From a virus, in the IMG/VR virus record IMGVR_UViG_3300005529_000002, positions 1 through 64,000 of that record: a DNA stretch of 64,000 nucleotides; one strand, written 5' to 3'. Position 1 is the stretch's first letter. The number at the start of each line of letters is the position of its first letter. A program made the translations under genes and the position numbers. Below are positions 24,546 through 28,595 of this stretch, one piece after another. The notes beneath the pieces are model-generated. The model was given only the letters and a program-made list of their open reading frames with translations, searched no databases and was not told where the DNA came from.

Positions 24546-25151
24546 TCAGGCGACTTCTTCGACGATGAGGCGACGGAGTGCGCCTGCCTTGCTGCCGTCC
24601 GTCCGGGTCTCGCCGAGGAGGCCGACGACCCACCAGCGCTCGCCATCCCATTGCGACGGCACCCATGAGGCGTGGAGGGCGTGCTGGGAGCACAGCCGCA
24701 GCGGGCCGGGGACTTCCTGGATGAGGCCGGGGCGGGCTGGATCGGCCATGGTGCGTCCGCCGTTAGCGGACTGGCCGTCCGTACCGGACCGCCACCATCC
24801 CAGGGAGACGGTCTCACCGGCCTCGACGGCTGCGGCCACCAGAGGGTGCGACAGGTAGGCCGACAAGGCGCCGTCGCCGTCGCCGTAGCCGTAGCCGTAG
24901 CCGTAGCCGGAGCCGGAGCCGGAGCCGTCGCCGGAGCCGGAGCCGGAGCCGGAGCCGTAGCCGTAGCCGTAGCCGTAGCCGTAGCCGTAGCCGTCGCCGG
25001 AGCCGGAGCCGTCGCCGTCGCCGGAGCCGGAGCCGGAGCCGGAGCCGTCGCCGTCGCCGTCGCCGTAGCCGGAGCCGTCGCCGGAGCCGGAGCCGGAGCC
25101 GGAGCCGTCGCCGTCGCCGTCGCCGGTTAGGACCAGGGCCTGCCCTGCCAC
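24546..25151 (-). CDS. Gly-X (GD/GS/GY) dipeptide-repeat protein
   Basis: About 42 GX repeats followed by a folded C-domain (PLRLCSQHALHAS..WWVVGL.GE). Confidence 0.75.
   Translation of the reverse strand: MAGQALVLTGDGDGDGSGSGSGSGDGSGYGDGDGDGSGSGSGSGDGDGSGSGDGYGYGYGYGYGYGSGSGSGSGDGSGSGSGYGYGYGYGDGDGALSAYLSHPLVAAAVEAGETVSLGWWRSGTDGQSANGGRTMADPARPGLIQEVPGPLRLCSQHALHASWVPSQWDGERWWVVGLLGETRTDGSKAGALRRLIVEEVA
24870..25124. repeat. Hexamer microsatellite (GCCGTC/GCCGGA/GCCGTA)
   Basis: About 42 units, within the CDS. Confidence 0.9.
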
Positions 25152-25472: not shown

Positions 25473-26117
25473 TCAGACCACGCACCTATCCCGTATAGTG
25501 GGTTCGTGACCGCAATGCTTGAACATGAGACACTGACTGACATGGCCATGGACGAAGAGACGCGGCAGGGCCTTGCCGAGGCGGCCGATAACGTGCTGCA
25601 CGGACCCGAACGGCTCAAGGCGTGGATTGTCAGGGCGGCCAGGGAGGGCGACAAGCCTGCGGACATCCACAAGGTGATCCATCCGGCCTACACCTACGAC
25701 TACGTTGCGGCGCTCGTGCGGACTGACCGCAAAGCCAATCCCGGCGAGTACCAGCGCGCAGCGAACCCGGGCACGCCAGAGCCGTCCGAGACCTCCCCGG
25801 ACGGCACCTGACGCCTCGCTCCGGCTCACCACGGCATCACCTCGGCCGCACGTACTGCACGTGAACCCGGCCGGGGGTACCTCGTCGCAGACTTCGCATG
25901 CAGGTGCGGTCAGGAGCACCGGCACCTGTATCCCGACAGCGTCAGCGATGCCGATGATCGAGCTGAGGGTGACGTTCCGGCCTGACTCGATCTGCCGCAC
26001 AGCCTCGCGGGAAATCCCGATCCGGCGGCCCATCTCATCAAGAGACCAGTTCCGCGCCTCGCGCTCGCGTCTTGCCCTCCGGCCGAACCAGGCGGGTACG
26101 TCCGGGCGGCCGGTCAC
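25473..26117 (-). CDS. XRE HTH + CxxC Zn-finger protein (ORF reads on antisense through the divergent gene)
   Basis: RREREARNWSLDEMGRRIGISREAVRQIESG..CEVC..CSTC; credible sequence ends near 25835. Confidence 0.6.
   Translation of the reverse strand: MTGRPDVPAWFGRRARREREARNWSLDEMGRRIGISREAVRQIESGRNVTLSSIIGIADAVGIQVPVLLTAPACEVCDEVPPAGFTCSTCGRGDAVVSRSEASGAVRGGLGRLWRARVRCALVLAGIGFAVSPHERRNVVVGVGRMDHLVDVRRLVALPGRPDNPRLEPFGSVQHVIGRLGKALPRLFVHGHVSQCLMFKHCGHEPTIRDRCVV
25515..25811 (+). CDS. Small divergent putative regulator
   Basis: RLKAWIVRAAREGDKPADIHKVI..YTYDYVAALVR (HTH-like); upstream near-palindrome at 25452-25470. Confidence 0.55.
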   Translation: MLEHETLTDMAMDEETRQGLAEAADNVLHGPERLKAWIVRAAREGDKPADIHKVIHPAYTYDYVAALVRTDRKANPGEYQRAANPGTPEPSETSPDGT

Positions 26118-26311
26118 GCTGTCTCTCCCCTCGCTGCGATCTCTGACGGCAGGAGCGTCTCGTCCAGCGGGTACAGCTCCATCTGGGTGAAGGACGGCAC
26201 CGGGCGGGGACGGAACAGCACGCACCCGCAGCCCGGCCGTGAGCACGGCTGCCAGCGTGCCCTGGCCATGTCATGGCGCTCCAGGGGATCGGTGCAGAGG
26301 CAGGTCGTCAC
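26114..26311 (-). CDS. Small Cys-rich hypothetical protein
   Basis: TCLC..H..PCSRPGCGC..F. Confidence 0.55.
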   Translation of the reverse strand: MTTCLCTDPLERHDMARARWQPCSRPGCGCVLFRPRPVPSFTQMELYPLDETLLPSEIAARGETA

Positions 26312-26364
26312 AGCACCTCCGCGATCGCGCGGCCGAGCCAGTTCGCCACGTTCGCACTGACCGC
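26308..26364 (-). pseudogene. Orphaned former C-terminus of the C5 methyltransferase
   Basis: Encodes AVSANVANWLGRAIAEVL*, paralogous to AVSCNVAHFLGKAIAAVL* at 26904-26960. Confidence 0.85.
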
Positions 26365-26870
26365 TACAGCGCCGCAAGCACCTCGTCGCGGTAGTGCTCG
26401 ACAATAAATGAGACGAGATCCTCGACGCGCTGGCCCGATGGCTGTTGGGTCATCCAGAGTTCGAGATTGTCCGGGCGGTTGTCCAGCGTCCTGCCATTTC
26501 GGTGATGAACTTGCTCCCATGGCCATAGGGCACGCCCGAGCACCTGGCTCATCACCCAGCGATGCTCTAGCATCGCTTTTCCGTTGACTAGAACCGTGCG
26601 GTATTTCGGAGTGCCTCGTGAGCGGGACGAGCAGGACCGTGAGCAGTATTTCTGCTGATGAAACCTGCCGGACGCCATGTTCGGCCCTCGGCCGAACGAC
26701 CTGCCGCAGTGCGCACAGGTTTTCTCGGTCAAGAAGGGGACTGCAGGGTCGCGACGAAAGCAAATCACCGAGCAAAATCGCTGCCGAGAAAACTGCTTTA
26801 GCGAGATCTTCGGGAGCTTCAGGAAGCTTTTCTGGCATCGCTCGCATTGCCGCATTGGCGGGGTGGTCAT
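26364..26870 (-). mobile_element. Free-standing HNH homing endonuclease
   Basis: Two CxxC..(F/Y)CS..C repeats, then LEHRWVM..EQVHHRNG..LDNRPDNLELW; lower GC than flanks. Confidence 0.88.
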
Positions 26871-26903
26871 AAATAAATTCTCGCAGATGGGTCTGACATT
26901 TCA

Positions 26904-28595
26904 TCACAGCACCGCCGCAATTGCCTTGCCGAGGAAATGGGCCACATTACATGACACCGCGTTCCCCGCCTGCATCGTCTGCTCGCCCTGGTTGCCCTTG
27001 ACGATGTAGGTGTCGGGGAACCGCTGGGCGCGCAGGTGCTCGCGGGGCTTGAGCATCCGCAGGCGGCACTCGGCGACGTCGGAGTCATCCGGCTGCACCA
27101 GGGCGGCGGAGTCGTGCGTGCCGAGCGTGTGGACCGGCTCAGCGGTCGTCGTGGCCCGTGACCGCCTGCCGCGGTAGGGCACGACGAGGGCGTGGCCGTC
27201 CCGCACGGTGACGGCGCTCACCGGGTCGGCGACCGATGTCACGTTGTGCTCCGGCGAGCAGTAGCCGCCGTAGTTCTTCACCAGGAACGGCGGCACGGTC
27301 AGCGCGTGGTTGCCGCCGCTCGCCACGACCGTGGCCAGCGGCTCGCTCACGCCGCGAGCAGAGTCGTCGCGGCCCCGGAGCATCGTCAGGAACGGCTGGG
27401 TGACCAGTGCGTCGGTGTCCCGCACTACGCGGGTCCGCAGCGGCTCCCCGGTCGAGGTCGGGTCCGATGTCCGGTTGTACCCGCCGAGCGGGAGGACCAG
27501 GCCGTGGTTCGACCCGCCGGCCATGATCGCCGCCAGGGGCTCGTCATCCACCCCGAGGTTGCGCACCCGGTTCGAGCGGAGCAGGGTCAGGAACGCGCCG
27601 TCCGGCGTGGCAAGTGCTTCGCCCGGCGTTCCGGTCCTCGTCCCCATAGGAAGCTCGCCGACCGGCCATGCGCGGACGTAGCCGGACCCCGGCCGCTCAT
27701 AGGTGTTGCCGCCGACAGCAACAGTGACCGGCTGGGCGAACAGCTCCAGGCCCGCGCGGATCCGCCGGATCGTGTTCGCCGCCAGCGGCCGTTTCCGTTC
27801 GCCGATCGGCGTTCCCAGGTCCGACCAGTCGATCGCCGAAGCGGCGGGCAGCACCAGCGGCTCCGCGACGGCGTGCCCGCACGCAGTCTCCGGGCAGCAG
27901 TAGACGTACTGCCGGCCGTACTTGCCGATCTTCGGCCGCTCCGGGCGCTTCCACGACTGGAACGCGCAGACCAGCGCCTCGCACACCGGGCACCACGCCA
28001 GCGGCCTGGGTGACACGTCCGGCAGCGGTATCCCGATGCGGGTGAACACGACGTACAGCCGGTCACGCCATTGCGGGGCGTAGGGATTGCCTTCGCCGCC
28101 GATGTGCGCCGAGGAGACGGAGACGAGCTGGTAGTTGTAGCCGAGCAGCACCATGCCGGACAGCCACCAGTCCCACAGCTCCCAGTCCGCGACCTCGGTG
28201 ACGTTCTCCACGATCACCGCCTTGTAGCGGTGAACCTCGGTGGCGCGGATCACGTCGTGGAAAGTCGCGCGGGTGCGTTCCATCCCGGCGCCCGGCACGT
28301 GGCCGGCCTCTTCGAGCAGGTCGAGCTGGCCTTTCGGGCGCCGCTTCCGGCCCCCGGCCGGCGAGTTCTCCGTGCAGATCGGGCTGGCCCACAGCACGTC
28401 GGTCTTGGGGAGCCGGCGCATGTCGTAGTTCGACACGTCGGCGCACAGGTGCTCGGCGTCGCGGAAGTTCGCCGAGTGGGTCTCGATCGCCCGGTCCCAG
28501 TGATTTGCCGCGAGCTGGAGTTCCAGACCTGCCTCGGTCAGGCCGATCGACGATCCGCCAGCGCCGCAGAAGATGTCCGTGTAGGTCAGGCTCAC
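26904..28595 (-). CDS. C5 cytosine DNA methyltransferase
   Basis: DIFCGAGG, WASPIC, VENV, QWRDRLY and QAGNAV. Confidence 0.92.
   Translation of the reverse strand: MSLTYTDIFCGAGGSSIGLTEAGLELQLAANHWDRAIETHSANFRDAEHLCADVSNYDMRRLPKTDVLWASPICTENSPAGGRKRRPKGQLDLLEEAGHVPGAGMERTRATFHDVIRATEVHRYKAVIVENVTEVADWELWDWWLSGMVLLGYNYQLVSVSSAHIGGEGNPYAPQWRDRLYVVFTRIGIPLPDVSPRPLAWCPVCEALVCAFQSWKRPERPKIGKYGRQYVYCCPETACGHAVAEPLVLPAASAIDWSDLGTPIGERKRPLAANTIRRIRAGLELFAQPVTVAVGGNTYERPGSGYVRAWPVGELPMGTRTGTPGEALATPDGAFLTLLRSNRVRNLGVDDEPLAAIMAGGSNHGLVLPLGGYNRTSDPTSTGEPLRTRVVRDTDALVTQPFLTMLRGRDDSARGVSEPLATVVASGGNHALTVPPFLVKNYGGYCSPEHNVTSVADPVSAVTVRDGHALVVPYRGRRSRATTTAEPVHTLGTHDSAALVQPDDSDVAECRLRMLKPREHLRAQRFPDTYIVKGNQGEQTMQAGNAVSCNVAHFLGKAIAAVL

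Follow-up and report, generated by a model that had tools for sequence, protein, structure and literature searches.

The subject of this analysis is a C5 cytosine methyltransferase gene and the HNH endonuclease gene lodged at its 3' end in a stretch of 64,000 nucleotides (nt) of viral DNA, positions 1 to 64,000 of IMG/VR record IMGVR_UViG_3300005529_000002, which is referred to below as the window. The full record is a complete phage genome of 99,932 bp with direct terminal repeats and a guanine plus cytosine (GC) content of 70%. At this locus the last 18 codons of the methyltransferase gene occur twice, once in frame with the gene and once directly behind the endonuclease gene, and the arrangement is probably that of a gene-end-replacing homing element of the kind known as mobile open reading frames (mORFs) in fungal mitochondria and as WHO elements in yeasts, here built on a phage HNH nuclease. 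The evidence for this reading comes from the anatomy of the locus, from the foreign composition of the in-frame tail and of the nuclease gene, from the family-typical character of the second tail, and from the recurrence of the same layout in other genes that adjoin related nucleases.

Anatomy of the locus and the two gene ends

All genes at the locus lie on the minus strand. In the direction of transcription, the parts are as follows, GC3 being the GC content at third codon positions.

26961..28595, minus strand: native body of the phage's C5 cytosine methyltransferase gene, which runs as far as the Gly-Asn codons of motif X (PF00145, E=8.4e-28; GC 0.71, GC3 0.92)
26904..26960, minus strand: live tail, the carried replacement, 18 codons (26907..26960) plus TGA, in frame with the body and forming the translated gene end (GC3 0.67)
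26871..26903, minus strand: AT-rich spacer of 33 nt, starting with a second TGA (GC 0.36)
26364..26870, minus strand: free-standing HNH_3 endonuclease gene (PF13392), 168 aa, encoding a pair of FCS-like zinc fingers and, C-terminal to them, an I-HmuI-like HNH domain
26308..26364, minus strand: remnant, the displaced native tail, 18 intact codons plus TGA, out of frame with any called gene end (GC3 0.94)
26114..26311, minus strand: next gene, 65 aa, Cys-rich and without a Pfam match, its GTG start overlapping the TGA of the remnant

The methyltransferase open reading frame (ORF; 26904..28595, minus strand) encodes 563 aa and is full-length with the live tail, having a complete motif X and an 18-residue tail in a family whose members measure 556-569 aa; it ends in two consecutive TGA codons (TGATGA). 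The G of the nuclease stop codon TAG is at the same time the first base of the remnant, which is read in a frame different from that of the nuclease. The whole cassette thus occupies about 596 nt (26365..26960), of which only the 33-nt spacer is non-coding, and a 5-nt repeat, GCGGT, is found at both of its junctions. A sequence-only reading of this DNA had described the succession of methyltransferase, tail, HNH gene, second tail and TGA/GTG overlap, and that description proved correct in every detail.

The live tail and the remnant agree at 13 of 18 residues and at 38 of 57 nt (67% DNA identity), and 9 of the 19 differing nucleotides fall within the first 15 nt after the junction; the remaining residues, 5 of 18, differ. 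Because unanchored local alignment is too noisy to convince in DNA of 70% GC (null 99th percentile 70, against an observed 60), similarity was expressed as a stop-anchored score, for which a pair of peptides counts only when each of the two runs to a stop codon. By this measure the two tails score 59, compared with a maximum of 38 among 1500 mismatched pairs of upstream and downstream sequences drawn from 144 HNH loci. In composition the tails part company: the GC content is 0.57 in the live tail and 0.59 in the HNH gene, 0.36 in the spacer, and 0.70 and 0.71 in the remnant and the methyltransferase body, and GC3 follows the same division, with 0.67 and 0.71 for live tail and HNH gene and 0.94 and 0.92 for remnant and body. 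Only 1.1% of the 18-codon windows of the body have a GC3 as low as that of the live tail, which is therefore compositionally foreign and resembles the nuclease gene in its GC3. The AT-richer codons that the sequence-only reading had listed after Gly-Asn, and the host-like codons that it had seen in the second 57-nt tail behind the nuclease stop, are borne out by these values.

Which of the two ends is native can be judged from relatives that have no HNH gene. The methyltransferase has more than 40 metagenomic or phage homologues at 68-84% identity, and in a wider sample of 118 homologous proteins with an alignable tail, 93 tails are nearer the remnant, 7 are nearer the live tail and 18 are tied. 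At tail positions 4, 9 and 12 the remnant carries A, W and R, which are present in 70, 115 and 46 of these homologues, as opposed to C, F and K in the live tail, which are found in only 1, 2 and 1; three proteins (P0017, P0022 and P0039) contain the 18 residues of the remnant exactly. The same preference is seen in DNA, where the tail of the viral locus L003 shares 47 of 54 nt with the remnant versus 41 of 54 with the live tail, and in the HNH-less viral relatives L002, L003 and L028 the methyltransferase gene agrees with the remnant in its final bases and in the GTGA by which it overlaps the gene that follows. Together with L004 and 33 further loci, these make up 37 related viral loci in which neither an HNH gene nor a second tail was found, so that the HNH gene is sporadic among relatives, and the genes downstream vary among them. 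By these comparisons the remnant is the family-typical native tail, as the sequence-only reading had anticipated in proposing that HNH-less relatives should end in a tail of the downstream type. No exact empty counterpart of this phage is at hand, since the 65-aa downstream gene has no match in viral contigs; among GenBank phages megablast gave no match to the locus, and tblastn gave only methyltransferases at or below 42% identity.

The live tail, judged by its sequence, looks like the native tail of a methyltransferase from a lower-GC donor to which three rare substitutions have been added. Its last 17 nt, including the stop codon and the ATG that follows (GTGATG), match a gene end of the L003 type, with its A-A-V-L ending. 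Deliberate synonymous recoding of the tail was considered as well and is ruled out by the 5 of 18 residue differences and by the donor-type stop/start overlap. Of the earlier proposal that the cassette entered at motif X with a recoded tail that keeps the enzyme intact, the site, directly after Gly-Asn, and the full length of 563 aa were upheld, while the notion of a purpose-made recoding had to be given up.

Two further observations concern the methyltransferase family and the phage group. One homologue, P0044, is a 941-aa protein with a 416-residue intein (Pfam Hint_2 and LAGLIDADG_3) placed directly before the catalytic Cys of motif IV, after the position of residue 73 of the window methyltransferase; counting this intein and the HNH gene of the window, two kinds of selfish element therefore target the family, each at a conserved motif of its own. 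A relative of the window phage of about 106 kb (L004, with methyltransferase P0040) was deposited within a metagenome-assembled genome labelled Trebonia sp., a label which hints that the group infects Streptosporangiales-type actinomycetes.

The nuclease and its relatives in other genes

The HNH protein of the window matches Pfam HNH_3 (PF13392) with E=1.7e-8 and 34.4 bits, above the cut-off of 24.8, and a six-frame search of the genome, in which the match reached 36.6 bits, found it to be the sole HNH_3 gene of the 99.9-kb phage. Its catalytic residues, HH..N..D-N..N-L-E-L-W, are unchanged in alignment, with H122, H123, N125, D130, N131 and N135 invariant across 11 sequences. The AlphaFold model has a predicted local distance difference test score (pLDDT) of 83. 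In an exhaustive structural search, residues 88-142 of the model found I-HmuI (1u3e) as best match (Z 5.2, root-mean-square deviation 2.2, 53 aligned residues), followed by the next at Z 3.2, and the N-terminal parts gave a weak match to FCS zinc fingers; Foldseek with the whole chain returned no useful match, nor did phmmer find one to the sequence in PDB. The nuclease combines an intact catalytic motif with a modelled I-HmuI-like fold, and cleavage activity is predicted. A consensus scan of the spacer (26871..26903) gave no sigma-70-like promoter.

Close homologues of this nuclease are scarce, with only two among 5.8 billion proteins, P0121 (82% identical) and P0122 (79%), both of which stop at the same residue; a metagenome scan with the window HNH yielded distant HNHs, carried by short contigs, and nothing closer. 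The record of P0122 places it on a contig of 9267 bp from the Joint Genome Institute (JGI), and a methyltransferase 78% identical to that of the window, P0021, is likewise recorded on a contig of 9267 bp and has a tail that is atypical at positions 4 and 8, just past the junction. The two are probably the parts of a second occupied methyltransferase allele, their adjacency being read from the equal contig sizes alone.

The clearest parallel comes from a gene of 134 aa. A zinc-finger HNH whose identity to the window HNH is 35% across most of the protein and reaches 65% in the HNH core lies 17 nt past this gene in two viral contigs (L042, the same as L111, and L043, the same as L055), with L047 as a metagenome copy. 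The insertion point, 8 codons before the stop, is identical in L042 and L043, and directly 3' of the HNH gene stands a second copy of the last eight codons of the 134-aa gene and its stop, the HNH stop TAA overlapping the first codon of this remnant. Among the 80 loci sampled, 2 are occupied and 78 are HNH-less; every one of the 78 HNH-less alleles has a tail of the remnant type, and in both occupied alleles the live tail is atypical, the first two residues past the junction being changed. The remnants of L042 and L043 are identical to their nearest empty alleles (L112 and L059) at 24-25 of 27 nt. The genetic backgrounds of the two occupied alleles differ, a feature of mobility: their host genes are 75% identical, their HNHs 64%, and the genes downstream differ. 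Comparatively, this points to repeated and precise insertion into the 134-aa gene, in other words to homing. In L043 (2531-2547; also in L055) the 17-nt spacer between live-tail stop and HNH start forms a perfect 6-bp hairpin around TAATC and contains TATAAT, and the spacer of L042 is similar with poorer pairing; the hairpin of L043 could regulate expression of the HNH.

Beyond this gene, 160 further HNH_3 relatives were surveyed in viral and prokaryotic contigs, of which 144 loci were usable. Against the null maximum of 38, the following loci stand out.

L288: host gene for an HK97-type major capsid protein (PF05065); stop-anchored score 57
L184: stop-anchored score 56; the end of the HNH gene overlaps the remnant
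L219: host gene of 231 aa; score 49; the remnant starts about 4 nt past the HNH stop
L195: stop-anchored tail duplication well above the null; on the same contig as L042

At least four host genes other than the methyltransferase gene have the tail-replacement layout next to a related HNH, and each time the HNH stop coincides with the start of the remnant or is no more than a few bases from it. In the unbiased sample the signature was present in 3 of 28 HNHs with FCS-like fingers versus 1 of 113 without, and on these cases the layout is recurrent in this nuclease group. Chances are about even that gene-end replacement is a regular lifestyle among phage HNH_3 nucleases of one clade, in particular where FCS-type zinc fingers are present; its members would aim at conserved codons close to the 3' end in a variety of phage genes (those for methyltransferase and major capsid protein, and small structural-module genes), carry a cut-resistant substitute end and keep the displaced end as a homology arm.

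Three loci of the survey show variations of the layout. In L184 (830-870), the final 13 or so codons of the HNH gene and the displaced native tail share the same DNA in different frames, and the nuclease ORF thus continues beyond the junction into sequence derived from the host. L157 (1460-2600) has a longer, gapped duplication of a C-terminal region, of which the downstream copy is apparently decaying. On a genome contig of Streptomyces scabiei (L268:1640-2400), a short HNH_3 gene stands between two apparent copies of the N-terminal 27 or so residues of the downstream gene, which may represent replacement of the gene start (5') rather than of the tail.

Elsewhere in the window, a 201-aa ORF (24546..25151, minus strand) consists mostly of dipeptide repeats of Gly, Asp, Ser and Tyr (GD, GS and GY runs), its DNA being a GC-rich short-period repeat that reaches 81% GC.

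Proposed mechanism and competing explanations

The mechanism envisaged for the methyltransferase locus begins with insertion of the cassette, made up of the substitute 18-codon end, the spacer and the HNH_3 gene, directly 3' of the Gly-Asn codons of motif X. The substitute end would keep the methyltransferase full-length, and the native end would be pushed downstream, where it would no longer be the translated gene end. From the layout and the relatives described above we infer an active nuclease, a target site, homing, and the use of the remnant as right-hand homology arm: in an allele without the HNH the nuclease would cut within or close to the native sequence that lies immediately 3' of the insertion point, and on co-infection the break would be repaired from the occupied genome and the cassette copied in, with the methyltransferase body as left homology arm and the remnant tail, plus whatever comes after it, as the right. 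The occupied allele would be immune, its site being split by the insertion and its carried tail departing from the native one at 19 of 57 nt, with 9 of these in the first 15. In both the methyltransferase and the 134-aa gene the residue changes bunch beside the insertion point, the place where an immunity-conferring difference would be expected. As to its origin, the GCGGT at both junctions and the donor-type stop/start overlap within the cassette suggest that the HNH gene may once have stood just downstream of a complete methyltransferase gene, from where it would have been copied into a cut recipient and rejoined by microhomology.

Several points weigh against this reading. No co-conversion tract was found upstream of the junction, either in protein segments or in 90-nt DNA windows. 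The remnant is perfectly intact, which fits a recent event and gives no sign of long-term use as a homology arm, and the 5-nt microhomology at both junctions also fits a one-off microhomology-mediated join. The right homology arm would often measure only 57 nt, given that the downstream genes differ among relatives. The occupied methyltransferase allele is known as DNA from the window alone (n=1), the neighbourhood of P0021 and P0122 being drawn solely from their matching 9267-bp sizes, and the target site of the HNH is a guess.

Some of these points feature in the principal competing explanation, by which a free-standing HNH gene downstream of the methyltransferase in a lower-GC donor was moved only once, through a left crossover in motif X and an illegitimate, microhomology-mediated right join, so that the remnant has no role and the site is not a target of the HNH. 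The carried tail does retain the donor's stop/start overlap (GTGATG, as in L003), as if the HNH had once followed a complete gene; the GCGGT repeat and the lack of a co-conversion tract also agree with a single event, which is probably how such elements first arise. As a full account it is nonetheless unlikely, because four or more further host genes show the precise layout with related HNHs and because two diverged cassettes at the identical point of the 134-aa gene, in two backgrounds, call for repeated precise insertion. A purely local origin, in which the phage's own tail was tandemly duplicated, the HNH landed between the copies and the upstream copy then diverged, would account for the equal length of the tails and their 67% identity in DNA, but it is very improbable: the upstream copy shares the low GC3 of the HNH gene (0.67 and 0.71, as opposed to 0.92-0.94 in body and remnant), its 3' end matches another sub-lineage (the L003 type, with A-A-V-L) and not the remnant, and divergence in place would not lower GC selectively in 54 nt under the same selection as the gene.

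HNH genes are often borne by introns, and a cassette that was a group I intron, or otherwise spliced, would give a mature methyltransferase ending in the downstream tail, for which the intact remnant and a frame open throughout the cassette would both be fitting. That frame, the ORF 26308..26907 (minus strand), has 199 codons and starts at a GTG overlapping the methyltransferase stop; it is weak evidence, as the remnant frame is free of stops in 2% of synonymous-codon shuffles of the HNH gene, and it is probably open by chance. Rfam gave no match to an intron or ribozyme in 25800..27500 at thresholds as lax as E of 10, only 33 of the 596 nt of the insert are non-coding and an in-frame double stop precedes the HNH gene, so that splicing is highly improbable. 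No Hint domain, as an intein would have, was found in the methyltransferase or the HNH protein, which the double stop keeps separate, and the arrangement is accordingly intron-less and intein-less, as first proposed. That methyltransferase and HNH make up a restriction-modification pair, with the HNH as its restriction enzyme, is scarcely credible: the genes are adjacent and on the same strand, yet the HNH is missing from more than 100 close homologues of the methyltransferase and no conserved co-occurrence was seen, the nuclease belongs to the homing-type HNH_3/I-HmuI group, the relatives of which adjoin unrelated genes including a capsid gene, and a remnant tail is not expected in a co-evolved pair.

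A gene-end-replacing homing element would be of wider consequence, given that the usual picture of a phage homing endonuclease places it in an intron, in an intein or in the space separating two genes; here, the coding sequence itself is entered, at a conserved motif, by a minimal cassette whose substitute end would keep the gene working. Such a strategy would explain how DNA sequences that are the most conserved, and for that reason the most widespread, can serve such elements as targets without the phage being killed, and would also account for the anomalous, compositionally foreign 3' ends of some phage genes and for short orphan gene-end fragments downstream of HNH genes. It provides a signature for annotation, the stop-anchored duplicated gene tail flanking a nuclease gene. 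Should gene-end replacement be a regular lifestyle of the HNH_3 clade, it would be a driver, so far undescribed, of horizontal exchange and of mosaic 3' ends among phage genes.

Comparison with known mobile elements

Engineered home-and-rescue gene drives, which insert in an essential gene and supply a recoded, cut-resistant 3' part, follow the same design logic as the window cassette, although they are synthetic, RNA-guided and made for diploid animals. Among natural phage elements, free-standing endonuclease genes of the T4 type occupy the gaps between genes, or interrupt nrdA in the case of Aeh1, and as they spread the markers on either side are co-converted; they are not known to bring along a duplicate gene end and to displace the native one. 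The T4 genes for SegF, SegG, SegB and MobE resemble the window HNH in being free-standing phage nuclease genes that are sporadic among relatives and expected to spread by double-strand-break repair in co-infection, and their intronless homing has been reviewed (PMC2988022; PMC2790892). I-HmuI of Bacillus phage SPO1 (PDB 1u3e) shares a catalytic core of the Pfam HNH_3 type with the window nuclease, from which it differs in being intron-encoded, in nicking DNA and in having other DNA-binding modules, the window HNH possessing two N-terminal FCS-like zinc fingers instead.

Closer in layout are the mORFs of fungal mitochondria, which create gene hybrids in atp6 of Allomyces macrogynus and in atp6, atp9, cox2 and nad3 of Glomus sp. 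(Beaudet et al. 2013, PMC3630166, citing Paquin et al. 1994), further descriptive cases being given in PMC6279837. As in the window, the endonuclease ORF lies within the gene's 3' part and brings a foreign C-terminus in frame with the host gene, and the displaced native C-terminus is closer to ORF-less relatives than the carried one is (PMC3630166). The mORFs differ in encoding LAGLIDADG or GIY-YIG nucleases, in residing in eukaryotic organelle genomes, and in having carried segments that are often longer and an ORF that is sometimes fused in frame, whereas the window has a compact HNH cassette of 596 nt in a double-stranded DNA phage, with a nuclease stop codon that straddles the junction.

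The WHO elements of Torulaspora and Lachancea yeasts, relatives of HO, home into the conserved gene FBA1, and every integration exchanges the 3' end of that gene for a new one (Coughlan et al. 2020, eLife, PMC7282813). The former 3' end persists downstream as a fragment and provides one homology arm, the gene body upstream providing the other homology; allele-specific cleavage has been shown experimentally, and the functional unit is the nuclease gene together with the resistance-conferring gene end before it (PMC7282813). Compared by anatomy, these elements appear to be the best-supported mechanistic model for the window, even though WHO nucleases are intein-derived LAGLIDADG proteins with zinc fingers and the elements are nuclear, meiotic and cluster-building, in contrast to a single HNH_3 cassette in a virus. 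In the searchable literature no description of gene-end replacement was found for bacteriophages or for HNH nucleases. The window would thus extend the mechanism of yeast WHO elements and fungal mORFs to bacterial viruses and to the HNH nuclease family: the principle is already known from these two systems (PMC3630166, PMC7282813), and the phage setting and the nuclease family would be new.

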